Shown: one piece after another, positions 9,178-48,780 of the stretch
Position numbering within the stretch: the first letter of the stretch is position 1
Layout of the letters: each line of letters begins with the position of its first letter
Assembly (NCBI GenBank): GCA_965222425.1
Contig: CBDCTW010000005.1
Span: 122,247-186,246, forward strand
Reading direction: 5' to 3'
From: Candidatus Marinacidobacterales bacterium
GTDB lineage: Bacteria; Acidobacteriota; Vicinamibacteria; Marinacidobacterales; DATDRI01
DNA length: 64,000 nucleotides
The notes under the pieces: generated by a model
What the model saw: the letters and a program-made list of their open reading frames with translations, nothing else
What the model was told of the DNA's origin: nothing
Database searches by the model: none
Translations under genes and position numbers: made by a program

Positions 9178-9786
9178 ATGATGCAGAGAATGAATGCCAA
9201 ATACGTCGTGCCGGCAGCCCTTGTCGCGAGTCTGATCATAGGCGCCGCGATTGCACAGGGCGGGTCGCTGAAGATCGATGCAGAACACTCCTCCGTCACC
9301 TTTCAGGTGACGCATCTCATGTTCACGAAAGTCGACGGTTAGTTTCGCGAGTTCGAGGGGACTTTCGACCTCGATGAAGACACCAACACGATCTCGAATG
9401 TCGTGGTGACGATCCAGACTGCCAGCGTCGATACCAACGTCGAGGCAAGAGACAAGGACTTGCGCAGCAAGCGCTTTTTCAACGTGGAGAAGTACCCTAC
9501 CCTCACCTTCAAGAGCACCGCTCCTGCCAAACTGAACGGCAAGAAGGGGAAGATGAAAGGCACCCTAACCATGCATGGTGTGGAGAAAGAAGCGGTTCTG
9601 GATGCCGAGCTTCTCGGAAAAGGCAAGGATCCCTGGGGCAATTTGAAGTATGGATTCCAAGCTACCACCGTTATCAACCGGAAGGACTTCGGTATGACGT
9701 GGAACGAGGCCCTCGAAGCCGGTGGAATCTTGGTTGGCGAAGAAGTGACGGTGAGGATCAATCTCGAGGCCGCGCCCGAATCCTGA
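9178..9786 (+). pseudogene. YceI-family periplasmic protein with one in-frame amber codon
   Basis: MMQRMNAKYVVPAALVASLIIGAAIAQG signal, then ...SLKIDAEHSSVTFQVTHLMFTKVDG-TAG(9340-9342)-FREFEGTFDLDED...VDTNVEARDKDLRS...FFNVEKYPTLTF. Otherwise a single uninterrupted frame to 9786. Confidence 0.75.
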
Positions 9787-9838
9787 GGACCGGGTGTCCA
9801 CTTGACCGAGGGTGTGCCTCCCGGTGGAGTTCGGGAGT

Positions 9839-9882
9839 GGCGCCTGGCTAGGTACCTCGAGGCAACCCCATATTTTGGCGCC
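9839..9882 (-). repeat. Single copy of the GGCGYC-AAAATA intergenic repeat family
   Basis: Reverse complement reads GGCGCC-AAAATATGGGGTTGCCTCGAGGTACCTAGCCA-GGCGCC. It has the same loop motifs (AAAATA, TTGC, CCTAGCCAGGCG) as the units at 29.8 kb. Confidence 0.55.
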
Positions 9883-9924
9883 AATCGCGAGGTGCAAGGC
9901 ACACCTTTTGTTTTTGGCCTTACA

Positions 9925-22796: not shown

Positions 22797-24196
22797 GGTC
22801 AAGTCTTAATTTTCCTGTCAAATCTCCGTACGGTTCCCCGCGCTCGGTTAAGCTGCTGATTTCTCCGACGTGCCTTGCGGGAGAAGCTCGTTGCGAAGCT
22901 CCTCGACTTTCCTAGCGGCGAAGACATCCATCCTCACGCCGCGCCATTTGTTTGCGACGGCCAAGAGCACAGCGAACGAGAGTTTCGTCGCGGCCTCCTC
23001 GGTGAAGAAGTGAGGAATGACCTTTGTGCGACGTTTGTGCTCTCCGAACGTGCGCTCAAGTAGATTCGACGTGCGAAGCCTTTTGTGATGCGCCGCAGGA
23101 AGGCGTAGCGCCTGAAGACACGCTTCGAGGGTCTCTTCCATGCACTTCATCGCGCTCGGGAATCGTTGACGGTACCGAGTGATCACCTCCCGACCCTTCT
23201 TCAGCCCTTGCTCGTAGCTGTTCGCATGGAACGACTCAAGGATGGCCGCCTTGAGTTCGTCGCGCACTTCCTTCGGAGCCTTGCCCAGGATGTTCTCGAG
23301 GCGGTGCTTCTGGCAACGTTGCTTGAGGCTTCGAGGGAAGACCTCTGCGATCGCTTTGAGCACTCCAGGATTCCCGTCCGTCACGATGAGTAACGGCTCC
23401 CTCATTCCTCGGGCCACCATCTCCTGCAAGAACCCTTTCCAGTTCTCGTAGGATTCTCGGTTGCCGACACCGATATGAAGAAGAACTCGCGTCCCATCAG
23501 CGCGATAGCCGGTCGCAACGAGGATGGGCTCTTTCCTCTCCGCTCCTTGGTGGTAGCGCAGGTACGTGCCGTCGAGCTCGAGATACAACAGCTTCTCGTT
23601 CGAGAGATCCCGTTTTCGAAACGCCTCGAAATCCTCCGACAGACACCGTGTGACCCGGCTCACCACCGACTTCGAGACACCCGTGCCGCTCAGCACGTCC
23701 GCGAACGTCGCCTCAATGTCACGCGTCGACATCCCGTGGACGTACATCCGCGCGATCAGTTCATCGAGTTTCTCGGTCCGGCTCACGTAGGCGTCGAGAA
23801 TCTTTGACTGAAACACCTTCTCTGTTTCTCGTACCTGCGGCACTTGCACCGTTACCGCTCCCTCGCCCGTGAGGACCCGATGCGACTCATACCCGTTGCG
23901 TCGTCCCTTCTCCTTCGTCGTTGCCGGAGCGTTCTCATAGTAATTTCGACCCAACGCCTCCGTCACCTCGCGCTCCAACGCATATTGAAGCATCATCTGA
24001 GCTCCCGACCGGACGATCTCCGAGAGATTCATCTCCCCAAATACCAGTTGTTCCTCGAACTGCTTGAGCAATCGCTGACTCGGTAGTACCTTTCCCATGA
24101 TGTATGGTTCTCCTTTTCTGTCCCCATGACGGGGACGGGTTTGAGCTTGGGGAACCATACATCGTTTTTCTTTGACAGGAATCTTAAGACATCACC
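22797..24196 (-). mobile_element. IS256-family insertion sequence, 1400 bp
   Basis: Imperfect terminal inverted repeats: GGTCAAGTCTTAATTTTCCTGTCAAA (left) versus the reverse complement of the right end, GGTGATGTCTTAAGATTCCTGTCAAA. One transposase ORF. Flanked by the 9-bp direct repeat GAATCGTCG. Confidence 0.85.
22848..24158 (-). CDS. IS256-family (mutator-type) transposase
   Basis: 436-aa ORF, probably starting at MGKVLPSQ (24098, GGAGAA upstream). DDE-type body with ...LYLELDGTYLRY..., ...LIVTDGNPG..., ...CQKHRLENIL... typical of IS256/mutator transposases. Confidence 0.9.
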   Translation of the reverse strand: MVPQAQTRPRHGDRKGEPYIMGKVLPSQRLLKQFEEQLVFGEMNLSEIVRSGAQMMLQYALEREVTEALGRNYYENAPATTKEKGRRNGYESHRVLTGEGAVTVQVPQVRETEKVFQSKILDAYVSRTEKLDELIARMYVHGMSTRDIEATFADVLSGTGVSKSVVSRVTRCLSEDFEAFRKRDLSNEKLLYLELDGTYLRYHQGAERKEPILVATGYRADGTRVLLHIGVGNRESYENWKGFLQEMVARGMREPLLIVTDGNPGVLKAIAEVFPRSLKQRCQKHRLENILGKAPKEVRDELKAAILESFHANSYEQGLKKGREVITRYRQRFPSAMKCMEETLEACLQALRLPAAHHKRLRTSNLLERTFGEHKRRTKVIPHFFTEEAATKLSFAVLLAVANKWRGVRMDVFAARKVEELRNELLPQGTSEKSAA

Positions 24197-24205
24197 GAAT
24201 CGTCG
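24197..24205. repeat. Target-site duplication (right) of the IS256-family element
   Basis: GAATCGTCG immediately outside the right IR. Removing the IS plus one copy restores the reading frame of the host gene. Confidence 0.8.
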
Positions 24206-24467
24206 CGCAGGAAGAACCGGACGCCCGCATTGCCGTGCCCATCCTCGGAGCGGTCGGACTGGGGCTATTCTTGTTCTTGCTGCTACTCTCGGCCCCCGGG
24301 ATTATCGCCGGCGTCGGTCTTCTACAGCTCCGCCCCTGGGCTCGCATCGTCACAATTATCCTCTCAGCTTTGAATCTCATGAACATACCCATCGGCACCC
24401 TGGTAGGGCCTACGGCTTATGGGTGATGCTCTCCGCGGACACCGAGAAGCTCTTCAGCCCGTCGAGT

Positions 24468-24590
24468 GGCGTCTGACCGGCGTCTGGCCACACTGATGAG
24501 AAGCACCTCCGTATGACGACGCCAAGCATGCAAGTCGTCCTGTTTTGACGCCCGGCGTGTAACAGCAACCCCGTATTTTGGCGGCCGACA
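24468..24590 (-). repeat. Two to three units of the GGCGYC-AAAATA intergenic repeat family (inverted orientation)
   Basis: Reverse complement contains GGCCGCCAAAATACGGGGTTGCTGTTAC, GGGCGTCAAAACAGGA and GGCGTC-GTCATACGGAGGTGCTTCTCATCAGTGTGGCCA-GACGCC. These are near-identical in places to the unit at 29872-29917. Confidence 0.55.
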
Positions 24591-24641
24591 GGGATCCAGG
24601 GCGCAGTATTCCGGCATAATGGACCGAGGTAGCGTGCAGGG

Positions 24642-25778
24642 TTGAAACGTTGGATACGCGGGTTGGTTGGCCTTTTGGGACTTTTCGTCCTGCTTTTCTT
24701 TCTTCTGCACACGGCACCGGGCAAGGAGCTTTCCCGCAGTGTATTTGTAAACACCGTCTCCGCACTATCGGATAGTGACGCCTCGCTGGGACACCTCGAT
24801 TATCGTCTTTGGCATGGAGAGATCACGCTTTCCGATCTAACGCTTCGGTCCGAGTCCTTCGACCTGGAAGTTGCTCGCATCGAGCTCGGTGTCTCGCCGA
24901 CTCTTCAAATTTCCGCCGACGTTCGGGGGCCTCGGCTCGACCTTCGTTTCGTGCCCGACGGCGAGATGGACGCCGAGAGCGAGCCTTGGACCGGCCTTCC
25001 GGTAAGCATCCGCCATATCCAGCTCACAGACGGTCATGTCCGTGTGGAATACGAAGATGCGAATGCCTGGTTGGAGGTGGGTGGAATCGGGATTCAGCTC
25101 GACGAAGGGCGCTTAGCAGTCGAGGGCAAAGAGCTCCCTTTGGAACCACTCGAGGCGACCTTGGAGTGGAAGGGATCGGAAATCTTGTTAGAGCAAGCGA
25201 GGGTCGGTACCGGTTCTTCCGAGGTGCGAATGCGAGGCGTGCTGAGCCCATCCCCTCTCACCGCTAGTCTCGCTCTGGACTTCCAGCTCGATGCCGAGCT
25301 GATGGGTCTGTGGGTTCCAGATTGGCACATTGCTGGACGGGTCGATGGCCGTGCCCGGCTGGAGGTGAACGAGGATCGACTTCGAGTCGAAGGGGATTTC
25401 CGCTCCGAGGACTTCGACTTTCAAGAGATCGGTACATGGAAATTCACTGGCAAGGTGAAGTTGGAGGACGGCGTCCTCGAGTTGGCGCCCGTCGCTTTGG
25501 TCGGCTATGGCGGGACCGGCGAGCTCGAAGCGCGGATTGCGCTTCGAGATAACGGAAGGAGCGAGTTTCATTACCGATTCAACAACCTCGATCTCGGTCG
25601 TTTGACGAAGACCCTCACCGGACTCGAGCCCCCCTTCAACACCCGAGTTCATAGTGAAGCCACGCTGTCGGTGACGGATTGGCAAATGGAGAATGCCGAG
25701 GGGCAAGGTAGTATCCGTCTCTTGCAGAGATCGGGAGCGAAGGAGCCCTCCCAAGCGGAGAGCTTGTCTTTTCTCTAG
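24642..25778 (+). CDS. TamB/AsmA-like membrane-anchored protein, probably only the N-terminal part (truncated)
   Basis: N-terminal TM anchor MKRWIRGLVGLLGLFVLLFFLL followed by repetitive beta-rich segments (...LDYRLWHGEITLSDLTLRSESFDLEVARIELGVSP...). It is 378 aa, whereas TamB-type proteins usually exceed 1000 aa. It ends 100 nt before a convergent gene. Confidence 0.4.
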   Translation: MKRWIRGLVGLLGLFVLLFFLLHTAPGKELSRSVFVNTVSALSDSDASLGHLDYRLWHGEITLSDLTLRSESFDLEVARIELGVSPTLQISADVRGPRLDLRFVPDGEMDAESEPWTGLPVSIRHIQLTDGHVRVEYEDANAWLEVGGIGIQLDEGRLAVEGKELPLEPLEATLEWKGSEILLEQARVGTGSSEVRMRGVLSPSPLTASLALDFQLDAELMGLWVPDWHIAGRVDGRARLEVNEDRLRVEGDFRSEDFDFQEIGTWKFTGKVKLEDGVLELAPVALVGYGGTGELEARIALRDNGRSEFHYRFNNLDLGRLTKTLTGLEPPFNTRVHSEATLSVTDWQMENAEGQGSIRLLQRSGAKEPSQAESLSFL

Positions 25779-28724: not shown

Positions 28725-29726
28725 TTAATCGGGGCCGAAGAGACGTTCCATAGGTAGAATGCGGACGTAGCTCGGCAGCTCGGTGTCGTCTTGGTCGTTG
28801 TCGTAACTGATGTACAAGTAACCGTCACCTTCCGCTAGGCCCTCTGTTTTTTTACCCCGGTCGAACGTGTCTTGGAGGAGCTCCACTCGACTCGCGGTCG
28901 AGTAAAACCATAGACGGTTACCCAGGAAACGGTGCGTCACGTCGTCTTCCGTGCTGGTGCCGATCAAGAGTCCTTGACGCTCCGGAACCCACAGAAGCGA
29001 CGAAACACAGAAAGGTATGCCTTCGATCATCCCGGCATCGAAGCTCACCGCCAACTCGAGCTCGGCTGGCGGCCCACCCCGTGCCGCATTTTCCAACTCG
29101 GAGAGCGAGAGGCGGTAAATGCGGGCCTGGTCGGTCGGCTCACGAAGACCCACGTAAAGCTCTGACGACGACGGGTTGAAAGCCAAGCCCTCGATCTTCA
29201 TGGCCTTCGGACGCCAGAGCCCAAGTTGTTCGAAGCTCTTATAGAGTGGAAACGTTTCCAGTCGGTTCGCGTAGGGCTCCAATCCTTCGCCCCCTTCTGT
29301 GAGCCGAAACCGAAGAAGGACGCTCGTGGCCCGCAACATGTCCTGCTCCCATCCCGAATGAGAGCCCACGGCGAAGAAGCTCTGAAACAGCTCGTCGAAG
29401 GCCAAGTCCTCGAACTTGGCGCCATCGGTGGGGAACCCTTCGAGGGCTACCGTCTGGGAGAGAATCCCCAGGCGATCGAAAACGAAGAGGGAGCTCAATA
29501 TGTCATCGACGACCACTAGTCGTCCCTGAAAGAAAGCGATCCCCGATGCCTCGAGTCTGGGTATCCGCTGGCGATTCGCGTCTCGCAACTCCAGGAGGAA
29601 TCCGTCGATGTAGTTCGGGAGACTGCCGGCCCACGCGGAAGCCGCGCCGAAAAATACTACGAGCAAGGCCCCGACGAGGCGGCGGGTCAAGGTGCATGGG
29701 GTGAGCATCGATCGCCATCGTAGCAC
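28725..29726 (-). CDS. Secreted hypothetical protein (possibly beta-propeller-like; family not confidently recognised)
   Basis: Signal peptide ...LVGALLVVFFGAASAWA. 333 aa with repeated ...EGLAF.../...GLREP... segments. No catalytic motif recognised. Confidence 0.45.
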   Translation of the reverse strand: MLRWRSMLTPCTLTRRLVGALLVVFFGAASAWAGSLPNYIDGFLLELRDANRQRIPRLEASGIAFFQGRLVVVDDILSSLFVFDRLGILSQTVALEGFPTDGAKFEDLAFDELFQSFFAVGSHSGWEQDMLRATSVLLRFRLTEGGEGLEPYANRLETFPLYKSFEQLGLWRPKAMKIEGLAFNPSSSELYVGLREPTDQARIYRLSLSELENAARGGPPAELELAVSFDAGMIEGIPFCVSSLLWVPERQGLLIGTSTEDDVTHRFLGNRLWFYSTASRVELLQDTFDRGKKTEGLAEGDGYLYISYDNDQDDTELPSYVRILPMERLFGPD

Positions 29727-29741
29727 AAGGGGACGGGACTT

Positions 29742-30047
29742 CAGATCCTGACCGGCGCCAAAATATCGAGTGCCGCTACGTGTCTGGCGTCAAAATAGGA
29801 AGTTGCTACTGGAGACCGTCATTACACGCAGGTGCTACTCGAGCGCGGCAGGACGCCTTTCGGATCCTGTAGGACGCCAAAATACGGAGGTGCTTCTATC
29901 AACCTAGCCAGGCGTGCTCGCAGATCGTGACGGCCGCCTAAATATCCCACTGCCACCATCAACGTGGTGAGGCGGAATCGCCAGATCGTGATGGGCGTCA
30001 AAATATCGCGGTGCTAATAGCAGTCTAGCAAGACGCCGGTTGACACC
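29742..30047 (+). repeat. Tandem array (about 5 units of ~60 nt, one compressed) of the GGCGYC-AAAATA repeat family
   Basis: Core units start at 29754, 29786, 29872, 29932 and 29993 (spacing 32, 86, 60, 61). Unit consensus: CAGATCSTGA-N-GGCGYC-AAAATAYSG-N-GGTGCTWC-ATCAAC-CTAGCCA-GRCGYC. Confidence 0.65.
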
Positions 30048-30069
30048 TTCTCACGCTCAACGTTAGAAT
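30040..30069 (+). promoter_or_regulatory. Sigma-70-like promoter directly after the repeat array
   Basis: TTGACA (30040-30045), 18-nt spacer, TAGAAT (30064-30069). The -35 box overlaps the last repeat unit. The STAS gene starts about 50 nt downstream. Confidence 0.45.
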
Positions 30070-30120
30070 TTCTCGTCCCACATCACAACACCTGACGTGC
30101 GCTCGAGCGGGAGGCCTTTT

Positions 30121-30479
30121 TTGATCATTGGAAAACGCTCTCGCGGTAACTCAACCATCCTAGACATCGAGGGGGCTATCGGGTTGGGAGAAAGCGCCTA
30201 GTTTTTCTCGCAAACACTGGAGAACCTCCTGCGCAACGAAACGACGCACATCGTGATCGACTTCACTAACATCAACTACATCGATAGCACGGGAATCGGC
30301 GAGCTCATTGGATACCTCTCCAAGTTCGCAGGACAGGAGAGGACCGGCAAGTGATTCTGGTCAACCCTTCCGAGCGTATCTCTAGGCTCCTCAACGTCCT
30401 TCGACTGGACAAGGCTTTCAAGATATTCCCGGACGAAGACTCGGCAGTAGCCTACGCCGAAGCGCAAGGAACTTCCTGA
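30121..30479 (+). pseudogene. STAS-domain anti-sigma-factor antagonist (SpoIIAA-like), with amber codon and frameshift
   Basis: GGGAGG, 6 nt, TTG 30121: (M)IIGKRSRGNSTILDIEGAIGLGESA-TAG(30199-30201)-FFSQTLENLLRNETTHIVIDFTNINYIDSTGIGELIGYLSKFAGQERTGK. A 1-nt shift at about 30350 then gives VILVNPSERISRLLNVLRLDKAFKIFPDEDSAVAYAEAQGTS*. Confidence 0.7.
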
Positions 30480-30649
30480 GCGCGTCGTTTTTACCTTCGC
30501 TTCCCCCGCCTTTTAGGATGACAGGACGGGCAGCAAGAGGATCGCGCACATTGATTGGTCACGAAGTAGGGCTAGACCTCGGATCTACTTCGATCGGTCG
30601 GGGGCACTGCTATTGAGAGTGACGAGATCAGCGACACCGAGGTCACTTA

Positions 30650-31334
30650 GAATTCCGGGTCTACGCGGATTCGTGTGGGTAAGTCCTGACGGAAAACAGT
30701 GTAACTCATTGTGTGGGAAAGGTATCCAGACTTCATCAGGTGCTGAAAAGTGGTCCATTTTTCGGATAGGCTAACCGAGTGAAAAATTCCCAGTCGATCC
30801 GCTCGCTGTTTGCGCTGCCAGGTTTCGTGGCTGGTGCCGGATTGAAGGGTGTATTCGATGACCGATACGCCCACGTCATCCAGCTCAAGAGGCGAAAAAA
30901 ACAGCTGTTTGCTCTTACTGTGGGCAACGGTGCCGGGGACGCTATGACAAGCAAGTGTGCCGGGTCCGCGACCTGTCGTTGGCAGGCTGGCGGATCTCTC
31001 TGGAATACGAGCGTTGGCGCGTCAACTGTCCTGGGTGCGGCGGTTTGCATGTAGAACACCTGGACTGGCTGGCGAACAACTCGCGCTACACCTAGCGTTT
31101 TGCGACGCATGTGGGCAAGCTGTGCCGGGATATGCCGGACAAGGCGGTGGCCGAGATGGAACGTCTGCGCCTCCTAGTTGAAGGGGTCAACAACAAAATC
31201 CGTGTGCTGCAACGACGCGCCTACGGCTATCGCGACGAGGAATATCTCAAGCTGAAGATCGTGGCGGCATTCCTTCCGCCATTACCCAGAAATGCCGTCT
31301 TCAACCCACACGAATCCGCGTAGACCCAGAATTC
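30650..31334 (+). mobile_element. Internally deleted, inactivated ISL3-family element (685 bp, MITE-like)
   Basis: 31-bp terminal inverted repeats GAATTC(C/T)GGGTCTACGCGGATTCGTGTGGGT at 30650-30680 and 31304-31334. The transposase N-terminus (...AVCSYCGQRCRGRYDKQVCRVRDLSLAG...RVNCPGCGGLHVEHLDWL...RYT-TAG-RFATHVGKLC...) is joined directly to the extreme C-terminus (EGVNNKIRVLQRRAYGYRDEEYLKLKIV). A frameshift lies in an A7 run at about 30893. No target duplication was seen. Confidence 0.75.
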
Positions 31335-47267: not shown

Positions 47268-47378
47268 GACTTATCCAGAGTGGCAGAGGGATCGGGCCCT
47301 TGGATGCCACAGCAACCGGCGTAGCACGGTGCTAAATCCCGCGGGTGGTCCCCGGTGGGTCGACCTGGCAGATAAGAC
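47268..47378 (+). promoter_or_regulatory. SAM-I (S-box) riboswitch aptamer
   Basis: CTTATCCAGAGTGGCAGAGGGATCGGGCCCTTGGATGCCACAGCAACCGGCGTAGCACGGTGCTAAATCCCGCGGG...GGCAGATAAG. This matches the S-box consensus blocks: P1 CUUAUC/GAUAAG, AGAG-GG-GAGGGA, GGCCC, GCAACC, GGUGCUAAAUCC. Confidence 0.85.
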
Positions 47379-47412: not shown

Positions 47413-47523
47413 TTCTCCCGGCCTAACTGACGGGCTAGAAGCCCCAAAACACGAGGGGTAGTCCATCAAAGGAGGGGGGTGGTTTCGCCTCAGCCCGGCG
47501 CGACCTCCGGTAAAAGGAATATT

Positions 47524-48780
47524 ATGAGTTACCTCAAGGGTTTGGAATGCAAAGAGTGTGGGGCCGCCTATCCCGCCGACCGTAGTTTCTTCTGTTCGGA
47601 GTGTCTCGGTCCACTGGAAGTGGTCTACGACTACGAACGGATCAGGGCCGATACCGGGCCGGAACGCATCGCGAGCCGAGAGCCGAACCTCTGGCGCTAC
47701 CGGGAGTTGCTTCCTGTAACGGGCGAGCCCATAACGGGTCATCACTCCGGCTACACTCCCTTAGTCCACGCCAAACGTCTCGGCGAGTATCTTGGCGCGC
47801 CCAACCTCTACTTGAAAGACGATACCGTGAACCACCCTTCCCTTTCTTACAAAGACCGCGTGGTCTCTATCGCCTTGACTCGAGGAGCCGAGCTCGGCTA
47901 CCAAGTTTTCGCCTGCGCCTCCACCGGCAATCTGGGAAACTCGCTTTCTGCCCACTGTGCTCGCACCGGTTTCCCCAGCCTCATCTTCATCCCCCAAGAT
48001 ATCGAACCGCCGAAGATCACCGGTTCGTTGATCTATAACCCGCGCATCGTCGCCCTCGAGGGAAATTACGACGACGTCAATCGCCTATGCTGCGAGATCG
48101 GGGACGAGTACGGTTGGGGCTTCGTCAATGTCAACCTGCGCCCTTATTACACGGAAGGTGCCAAGACGCTGGGTTTCGAGATCGTGGAGCAGCTGGGCTG
48201 GAGATTACCCGATCACATGGTTCTACCGACCGCGGGTGGCACGCTTCTCCCGAAGGTAGCGAAAGCGTTCTCCGAGACGTTACGGCTCGGATGGGCGACC
48301 GGCGATGTTCGAATCCACTGTGCGCAAGCGGAGGGATGTGCACCGATCGTCCACGCGCTTCATCGCGGCGACGATCTCGTCGATCCCGAAAAACCGAACA
48401 CCATCGCCAAGTCGATCGCCATTGGTAACCCCGCCGACGGCCCGTACGTACTCAAGGAAGTCCGGCGAACCGGGGGGTGGGGAGAGACCGCCACCGACGC
48501 GGAGATCCTGAGCGCTGTCCACTTGCTTGCCGAAAAGGAAGGGATCTTCACCGAGCCGGCGGGCGGCACTACGGTCGCGGTCACGTTGAAGCTCATTGAC
48601 CAAGGCCGTATCGACCCCAAAGATACGATCGTCGTCGGCATCACCGGCAATGGCTACAAGGCCTTGGATACGTTCTCCTCTCGGCTCCAACTCGAGACAG
48701 TGCTACGTCCTCGACTGAGTGTCTTCCGCGAGTGGTACGAACAACACCAGCCTGTCCACGCCGCCCGCCCCTCGACATGA
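47524..48780 (+). CDS. Threonine-synthase-family PLP enzyme with N-terminal Zn-ribbon (second paralogue; function possibly not threonine synthesis)
   Basis: MSYLKGLECKECGAAYPADRSFFCSECLGPLEVVYDY (4-Cys ribbon). PLP-Lys motif variant LSYKDRVVS. 419 aa. AAAGGA then ATG 47524. First gene after the SAM-I riboswitch. Confidence 0.8.
   Translation: MSYLKGLECKECGAAYPADRSFFCSECLGPLEVVYDYERIRADTGPERIASREPNLWRYRELLPVTGEPITGHHSGYTPLVHAKRLGEYLGAPNLYLKDDTVNHPSLSYKDRVVSIALTRGAELGYQVFACASTGNLGNSLSAHCARTGFPSLIFIPQDIEPPKITGSLIYNPRIVALEGNYDDVNRLCCEIGDEYGWGFVNVNLRPYYTEGAKTLGFEIVEQLGWRLPDHMVLPTAGGTLLPKVAKAFSETLRLGWATGDVRIHCAQAEGCAPIVHALHRGDDLVDPEKPNTIAKSIAIGNPADGPYVLKEVRRTGGWGETATDAEILSAVHLLAEKEGIFTEPAGGTTVAVTLKLIDQGRIDPKDTIVVGITGNGYKALDTFSSRLQLETVLRPRLSVFREWYEQHQPVHAARPST

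Follow-up and report, generated by a model that had tools for sequence, protein, structure and literature searches.

A previously undescribed ∼60-base intergenic repeat family with a covarying hairpin stem in a marine lineage of Acidobacteriota

A family of intergenic repeats of ∼60 bases, which is real and previously undescribed, is present in one marine lineage of the Acidobacteriota. The two arms of each unit form a stem that is kept by Watson–Crick compensatory change in more than 90% of the units, and the loop between the arms contains boxes that have stayed conserved although change has reached saturation at every other position. With modest confidence, the units are read here as a mosaic, REP/BIME-like repeat element that requires a hairpin and acts at the level of DNA in a marine Vicinamibacteria lineage (Candidatus Marinacidobacterales and relatives). 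Marinacidobacterales is an order in the class Vicinamibacteria of the phylum Acidobacteriota, and to our knowledge none of these organisms has been cultured.

The window, i.e. the whole stretch of 64,000 nucleotides that was analyzed, was compared with a sample of 79 distinct units collected from Candidatus Marinacidobacterales MAGs and from ∼40 metagenome contigs. In a pattern scan of one genome per species the matches were mostly due to chance, and the true members were confirmed by HMM. Loci of the family were found in the Candidatus Marinacidobacterales MAG OZ245365.1 (L007, L008, L030, L037, L053, L064 and L082), in the Candidatus Marinacidobacterales MAG isolate 830f3ca3 (L010, L063 and L069) and in one Vicinamibacteria MAG (L047). 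Synteny with the window, at 76–92% DNA identity, was observed for L037 and L010, so that the window belongs to a related genome; four exact-protein look-ups retrieved no record. A second pattern, which specified nothing but the boxes of the loop and four positions of the 3' arm, yielded ∼40 further family contigs in JGI and WGS metagenomes. No family copy was found in the viral contigs and plasmids that were searched, and full-text literature searches returned no description of the repeat family or of the order, nor any comparable family for Marinacidobacterales.

The 79 distinct units share a plan consisting of a leader of 12–14 nt, a 6-nt arm GNCGYC, a loop of 33–35 nt and a complementary arm GRCGNC. 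The leader is weakly conserved (CTCAGATCGTGAY, or variants such as GCGCAGTCACCTGTT), the loop contains, in order, CAAAATA, four variable bases, GKTGCY, 9–10 variable bases and (CT)AGCCAG, and the 3' arm G-R-C-G-N-C is followed by GGT. Conservation ends ∼12 nt before the 5' arm and 4 nt past the 3' arm, with a flank consensus of only c.tG.yGG on the 5' side and GGT on the 3' side. The tetranucleotide GCCA occurs three times per unit at a spacing of 16–17 nt, and GGA follows the AAAATA box in many units, yet is not conserved. Five arm haplotypes occur among the units, the commonest being GCCGCC and GCCGTC, and the orientation of the loop relative to the leader is constant. In the arrays examined the units stand head-to-tail with a period of 58–61 nt, the one exception being an abutting pair of ∼47 nt in L008. 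A second type of unit, type B, reads GGGCGTC-CAATAA..GGGTGCC..ACTATCGAACGCGGCAG-GACGCC. A search with a type-B model found intact copies in L037 only. L082 and L069 each have a type-B loop into which a type-A unit, leader included, has been inserted, at two different positions.

Several simple readings of this anatomy were rejected. The spacings of the boxes misfit a sigma-54 or sigma-70 promoter on either strand, as judged by eye, and the commonest arms, GCCGCC and GCCGTC, misfit a restriction site (GRCGYC, AcyI/BsaHI). Arms derived from a target-site duplication would be direct, whereas those of the units are inverted, and the constant orientation of the loop with respect to the leader speaks against a tiny invertible segment.

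Three loci of the window carry the family. The largest is an array on the + strand (29742–30041), which the sequence-only reading of the window had described as a tandem array of five units; the units are indeed tandem and head-to-tail, but instead of five equal units there is a composite of 119 nt followed by three canonical units of 60–61 nt. The composite, which is the first (`long') element of the array (29742–29860, + strand), has two 5' heads (29754 and 29786) and one 3' tail. Its leader, CAGATCCTGACC, is followed by head 1 (GGCGCC-AAAATA at 29754), which is truncated past a GTGCC box, then by head 2 (GGCGTC-AAAATA at 29786) and, 3' of head 2, by a degenerate third head, GACCGTC-ATTACA. 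The tail is of type B (GGTGCT..GCGGCAG-GACGCC) and its arm, 29852–29857, is complementary to head 2. Unit U2 (29861–29920, + strand) is canonical, with arms GACGCC at 29873–29878 and GGCGT(g) at 29911–29916, of which GGCGT occupies 29911–29915, and with the loop AAAATA-CGGA-GGTGCT-TCTATCAAC-CTAGCCAG; it scores 59.6 bits (E = 8e-9) with the covariance model and E = 1.9e-16 with nhmmer. Unit U3 (29921–29981, + strand) is diverged, with arms GCCGCC (29933–29938) and GGCGG (29971–29975) and with boxes altered to TAAATA, ACTGCC and GTGGTGAG; its scores are 26.3 bits (E = 0.008) and E = 1.6e-14, respectively. Unit U4 (29982–30041, + strand), again canonical, has arms GGCGTC (29994–29999) and GACGCC (30032–30037), followed by GG and then by the −35 box of a promoter, and scores 58.6 bits with the covariance model.

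The two remaining loci lie on the − strand. At locus A, a single unit (9833–9893) with arms GGCGCC/GGCGCC (9877–9882/9839–9844) and a covariance-model score of 58.5 bits is located between a gene of the YceI family (end at 9786) and an M19 dipeptidase gene, antisense to both. Locus B is a composite (24473–24597) that resembles the 119-nt composite of the array, and comprises two heads (24585 and 24552) together with a complete hairpin GGCGTC/GACGCC (24518–24523/24479–24484); it lies between a membrane-protein pseudogene (end at 24476) and a gene starting at 24642, antisense to both. The five arm pairs quoted in the sequence-only reading are all present in the sequence (at 9839/9877, 24479/24518, 29873/29911, 29933/29971 and 29994/30032), and its copies at 9.8 and 24.5 kb were recovered by pattern, HMM and covariance model alike. 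The motif GRCGYCAAAATA, allowing at most one mismatch, has seven matches in the window against 0.78 expected (none of 100 shuffles reaches seven), and all seven fall within the three loci: the array (+), 9.87 kb (−) and 24.55 kb (−). An nhmmer search with an HMM built from four units and an unfiltered covariance-model search gave significant window copies at the three loci only; the latter returned seven matches with E < 0.01, the next having E = 2.2. A generic search of the window for a GNCGNC arm with a complementary partner 28–40 nt away found eight instances against 3.6 ± 2.1 expected, which were the family loci and chance genic matches only. Self-comparison of the array revealed three 52-nt copies at a spacing of 60–61 nt and a 30-nt 5' part in 4–5 copies; Tandem Repeats Finder did not report the array because the units are merely 65–77% alike.

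The two arms change together. Position 2 of the 5' arm and position 5 of the 3' arm form a Watson–Crick pair in 72 of the 79 units (CG 46, GC 17, AT 9; mutual information 1.02 bits), and position 5 of the 5' arm and position 2 of the 3' arm in 76 of them (CG 50, TA 26; 0.71 bits), while every other column pair has a mutual information of 0.33 bits or less. In alignment A1 (78 units) 94.9% of the stem cells pair. Stem cells with a double change number 54, compared with 19.4 ± 2.8 in shuffles, and none of 500 shuffles reaches the observed value; a statistical test thus gives strong covariation, and the earlier statement that paired substitutions in the arms keep complementarity is borne out. The signal is lost when the stem partner is slid by 1–3 columns. 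RNAalifold, run independently, predicted the arm stem alone, and neither this program nor the mutual information of all column pairs revealed further structure in the loop or involving the leader; the loop shows no covariation. As a control for any bias that selection by pattern might have imposed on the arms, the 27 units picked by neither pattern, which came to light only as neighbours, were analyzed apart; each pair is Watson–Crick in 26 of the 27, compared with 55% and 52% expected under independence. The few stem mismatches are symmetric, with four of the G.T type and four of the A.C type. The covariation of the arms is therefore real and strong, and the hairpin is under constraint. The folding energy of the units and of the whole array, on both strands and as DNA or RNA, is no better than that of shuffles (z-scores for units and arrays from +0.5 to −1.8). 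It had been proposed from the sequence that the arms represent either a hairpin, in RNA or cruciform DNA, or a dimeric protein-binding site; the hairpin was retained, whereas a dimeric site leaves the covariation unexplained.

Intergenic placement in either orientation, which had been noted for the window, extends to the whole sample: 52 of the 55 arrays or single units with a callable context are intergenic, and all four gene contexts occur among those resolved (co-directional sense, 14–16; co-directional antisense, 8; divergent, 8–9; convergent, 5). Elements of the single-stranded IS200/IS605 type are usually biased in orientation relative to GC skew; no such bias was seen with respect to the local GC skew, with 22 of 38 units on the G-rich strand against 16, in what is a weak test on fragments of 3–15 kb. 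No conserved promoter or terminator was found flanking the arrays, and the lack of conservation beyond ∼12 nt upstream indicates that the units do not have a promoter of their own. In an all-against-all BLASTP comparison of 291 predicted proteins from 47 loci, no recurrent gene was found beside the units, the only matches being syntenic orthologues, as expected for a non-autonomous element that is served in trans. The view that the motif belongs to no named riboswitch class agrees with Rfam 15, in which no family matches the repeat: at the gathering threshold the sole match in the window is a SAM riboswitch (47268–47378), and a permissive scan of 29600–30200 returned nothing relevant, with one CRISPR match (E = 5.7) that is due to chance and lies outside the array. 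The riboswitch itself is of the SAM-I type (RF00162, 71.5 bits, + strand) and lies upstream of a gene at 47479–48780.

Some further observations were made in the surroundings of the units. In some metagenome contigs (L087, L091, L100, L101, L111, L115, L133 and L140) a separate short palindrome, GGTGGGGCCCCAC(G)RGCAYTRAT, often lies directly 3' of units and also occurs alone near them; the window has no copy of it. At several loci, among them L008, L100, L108 and L010 (∼980–1000), upstream open reading frames run into antisense units and end inside them. Since the CTAG of the CTAGCCAG box is palindromic, it provides a TAG stop on either strand, and units can change the C-termini of genes or mislead gene callers. 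In L139 (1–60, viewed on the − strand) a five-unit array ends ∼30 nt from an apparent tRNA 3' end (GGATTCGAACC motif) on the opposite strand.

The family is old. Unit identity is 0.67 within the three genomes that were sampled at several loci and 0.68 between genomes, variable columns stand at the level of saturation (0.37 against 0.36) and 25 of the 48 hairpin columns are at least 85% conserved. Saturation of the variable columns together with equal identity within and between genomes points to an old family in which the boxes and the stem are under constraint. This equality, at ∼67%, and the syntenic loci in other genomes show that the family did not arise as a recent segmental duplication and support the earlier claim that more than simple duplication is involved.

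Orthologous loci illustrate both persistence and turnover. The array at the STAS locus is common to the window, its close relative L156 and L037; relative to the window, L156 shows 95% identity in the adjoining protein of 333 amino acids and L037 ∼86% DNA identity. The array has five heads in the window, three units in L156 and four units in L037. L156 lacks ∼120 nt of the composite part, and L037 has a different nested unit there. Where the window has U3, the array of L156 contains a unit that is ∼70% identical, with different yet matched arms (GACGCC compared with GCCGCC in the window). U4 is nearly identical in L156 (two differences) and in L037, where it occupies another array position, and the last unit of L037 is chimeric with mismatched arms (GGCCGCC/GGACGCC). 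The flanks are far better conserved than the array, as the aligned promoter and 5' UTR of L037 and L156 contain few mismatches. Both the STAS gene and the array are missing from L157, which is more distantly related. Locus B is common to the window, L010 and L108, the latter two having two plain tandem units, and the orthologous site of locus A in L154 contains a decaying copy. A further shared locus has two units in L100, one in L117 and two divergent units in L139. In one metagenome population, composites of two units that are 92–98% identical occur in contigs with unrelated flanks, which attests directly to copying into new loci in the recent past, while the lack of near-identical copies within the three multi-locus genomes suggests that activity there may be ancient. 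Units have thus been gained, lost, replaced, nested and copied to unrelated loci; their retention at fixed positions across species would suit a host function as well. No clean pair of empty and filled sites with exact boundaries was obtained among the loci compared, and no target duplication is visible. The locus A orthologous site in L155 (2090–2165) is occupied by an unrelated, near-perfect long palindrome, TTGAATTTCGGGGACAGGTGATTTAATTC...GAATTAAATCACCTGTCCCCGAAATTC, with no unit.

The last unit of the window array had been described as overlapping the −35 box of a promoter; instead it abuts the promoter. The sigma-70-like site TTGACA-18-TAGAAT (30040–30069, + strand) begins 3 nt after the last unit, the arm of which ends at 30037, and serves a STAS gene that starts with TTG at 30121. 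No other sigma-70-like site was found in 29600–30600. Both the site and the 5' UTR are conserved in L037 and L156 despite reshuffling of the array. The gene itself (30121–30470), which encodes a STAS-domain protein (anti-sigma-factor antagonist), is broken in the window by a TAG at codon 27 (30199–30201) and a frameshift near 30335, and is either a pseudogene or an assembly error; its orthologues in L037 and L156 are intact (116–117 amino acids).

Two probable mobile sequences were also observed near family loci of the window. An element of ∼685 bp (30650–31334) has 31-nt inverted repeats with 97% complementarity at its ends (30650–30680/31304–31334) and contains a C-terminal fragment (31111–31323) that resembles an ISL3-family transposase, as judged by eye. 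Its identity to pieces of L010, 95–97%, greatly exceeds the genome background; it is absent between the STAS and PilZ genes in L156 and is likely to be a decayed IS or MITE. On the − strand, a transposase gene of 436 amino acids (22848–24158), of the IS256 or mutator type by eye, sits inside a small membrane-protein gene (remnant 24172–24476), the flanks of which are joined without the transposase in L010; the 3' remnant of the membrane-protein gene has a 1-nt frameshift near 24404 relative to L010.

Among known systems, the family most resembles the REP/BIME class of Enterobacteria and Pseudomonas, including RIP/RIB and REPINs. It shares with this class short, extragenic, non-autonomous units at many loci, a hairpin with compensatory changes in the stem, mosaic arrays with conserved linkers and vertical persistence at orthologous positions with changing copy number. 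RIP elements consist of two inverted arms around a protein-binding region of ∼35 bp. REPs proper are imperfect palindromes of 20–40 nt with a stem of 5–13 bp and a loop of 2–20 nt (PMC3733652). The 6-bp stem of the present units is within this range, but their loop of 33–35 nt and hairpin of 45–47 nt are not. The GTAG/CGTC tag of REPs is also lacking, as GTAG precedes the arm in one window unit only (29869–29872) and CGTC occurs solely as part of the paired arm in some haplotypes. The arrays are head-to-tail, unlike the inverted pairs of BIMEs and REPINs, and in contrast to REPs the family is not depleted from divergent promoter regions. REPINs are served by a RAYT (Y1 HUH transposase) whose cognate single-copy gene is flanked by the repeats; no RAYT was found in the loci sampled. 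The family thus behaves like the REP/BIME class while departing from REPs proper in loop, tag and array layout. It does not fit MITEs either, since the arms vary and covary, no direct duplication flanks the units and identity within genomes is ∼67%; near-identical dispersed composites of the MITE kind were found in one metagenome population only. The earlier judgement that no named REP or MITE is represented therefore stands.

Other systems share some of these properties. BOX elements (boxA-boxB(n)-boxC) are modular, intergenic and predicted to form hairpins (PMC3049150). Pneumococcal BOX and Rhizobium RIME elements are similar to the present family in the variable tandem iteration of an internal module, dispersed loci and predicted hairpins, but differ in having no sequence similarity to it and another host phylum, and covariation in the present family is confined to one short stem. 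Moreover, the modules of BOX are unlike one another, whereas here a single hairpin module with its leader is iterated. Mycobacterial MIRU-VNTRs are likewise direct tandem repeats of 40–100 bp that are dispersed in intergenic regions and vary in copy number among relatives, and the present arrays qualify as VNTRs of this type, which is a descriptive class and does not imply homology. MIRUs are located within operons in a single orientation and contain small reading frames that overlap, and a covarying hairpin is not among their defining features; units of the present family are found in either orientation and in every type of intergenic region. The attC sites of integrons (57–141 nt, a range that overlaps the unit size) are also recognized as folded single-stranded hairpins in which complementarity of the stem matters more than its sequence. 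However, the R''/R' motifs RYYYAAC/GTTRRRY are absent, the arms here being GNCGYC/GRCGNC; the units adjoin one another with no gene cassettes between them, and it is the sequence of the loop rather than of the stem that is conserved. No integrase was seen in the sampled loci. A CRISPR array was rejected on the grounds that the linker of 12–14 nt is itself conserved and the `repeat' varies by 25–35%, and a type III toxin–antitoxin (ToxI-like) locus on the grounds that the array is followed by a STAS-domain gene that has a promoter of its own and that other loci have unrelated neighbours.

Under the favoured interpretation, the ∼60 bp module, when single-stranded, can fold into a G+C-rich stem of 6 bp that closes the loop of 33–35 nt with its three boxes. 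The element would act at the level of DNA, with the hairpin and loop boxes forming the target of a putative trans-acting protein that reads folded single-stranded DNA; a HUH transposase similar to RAYT, some recombinase, or a nucleoid or repair protein of the host could fill this role. A protein that binds the folded single strand would account for both the boxes and the stem. This interaction may propagate or maintain the units, unequal recombination between units may then remodel the arrays and any effects on neighbours, such as the STAS promoter, would be secondary. Against this reading, no candidate enzyme was found in the sampled loci, and a stem of 6 bp with a loop of 35 nt is energetically marginal. 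A stronger form of the same idea, which we put forward tentatively as a rather unlikely case, is that the units are the cis half of an undescribed two-part system, in which a conserved trans protein uses three boxes of a 35-nt loop, held together by a 6-bp stem of free sequence, to recognize the folded strand of DNA or, with lower likelihood, of RNA. Such a system would be a partnership of the REP/RAYT or attC/integrase kind with a new architecture and could be domesticated by the host, which would explain why the boxes and positions persist across species despite saturation elsewhere.

Three other explanations were weighed. The covarying stem would also be expected of an RNA structure that acts in cis within untranslated regions, for instance as a stabilizer of 3' ends, a processing site or a weak terminator, as proposed for REPs in mRNA, and a strictly Watson–Crick stem would allow such an RNA to work in either orientation. 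Units within 50 nt of a stop codon are about twice as often antisense (16) as sense (8–9), and the unit of locus A, 3' of the YceI gene, is flanked by a hairpin and by a stem with a T-run. On the other hand, the loop boxes are conserved and asymmetric, and yet the units occur in both orientations, a combination that fits RNA poorly and recognition of DNA well; 8–9 of the 41 resolved contexts are divergent promoter regions. There is also no excess of G.U pairs, folding energy equals that of shuffles, no T-run lies 3' of the stem, no terminator-like site is present in 29600–30600 and Rfam holds no match. As between an RNA and a DNA hairpin the evidence leans towards DNA without settling the matter, and a cis-acting RNA is considered improbable. 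The idea of an independent small-RNA gene or a protein-sponge RNA made of tandem hairpins, similar to CsrB/RsmZ or ToxI repeats, draws on the head-to-tail arrays with conserved loops and on the GGA that many units have after AAAATA. It is very hard to reconcile with array ends that have no conserved promoter or terminator, with the many loci that consist of single units in both orientations, with the poor conservation of GGA, with the lack of a toxin-like or recurrent gene downstream and with arrays that differ greatly among close relatives, and we regard it as most improbable.

An array of duplex-DNA sites, in which a nucleoid-associated protein or regulator reads the loop boxes and could influence promoters nearby, that of the STAS gene for example, would explain why the boxes survive saturation elsewhere and why the units are independent of gene orientation. 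The three GCCA motifs at 16–17 bp would recall the IHF-binding L region that separates the two inverted REPs of Escherichia coli RIP/BIME-1 elements, the array persists beside a conserved promoter in three genomes and at a few other loci the 3' flank GGTTGA(A/C) starts a −35-like hexamer with a −10-like sequence 17–18 nt downstream. This reading nevertheless leaves unexplained the covariation of two arm positions that are 40 nt apart. In addition, the flanking genes have no common function or family, close relatives differ in array content and the IHF consensus WATCAANNNNTTR is matched only partly and in a subset of units in an alignment read by eye. It is therefore given little credence as a full account of the family, and the hairpin-requiring DNA element remains the preferred reading.

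Interspersed hairpin repeats have been well studied in Proteobacteria. If a partner protein of the present family exists, the REP/RAYT or attC paradigm would be extended to a new class of structure; if there is none, the family would be one more selfish or structural repeat, which annotation pipelines should mask so that open reading frames are not called across it. In either case the arrays are natural VNTR markers for strain typing in symbiont or marine populations, and the family provides a natural experiment in which a minimal, compensated stem and a sequence-conserved loop are combined with persistent loci and a rapid turnover of their content.
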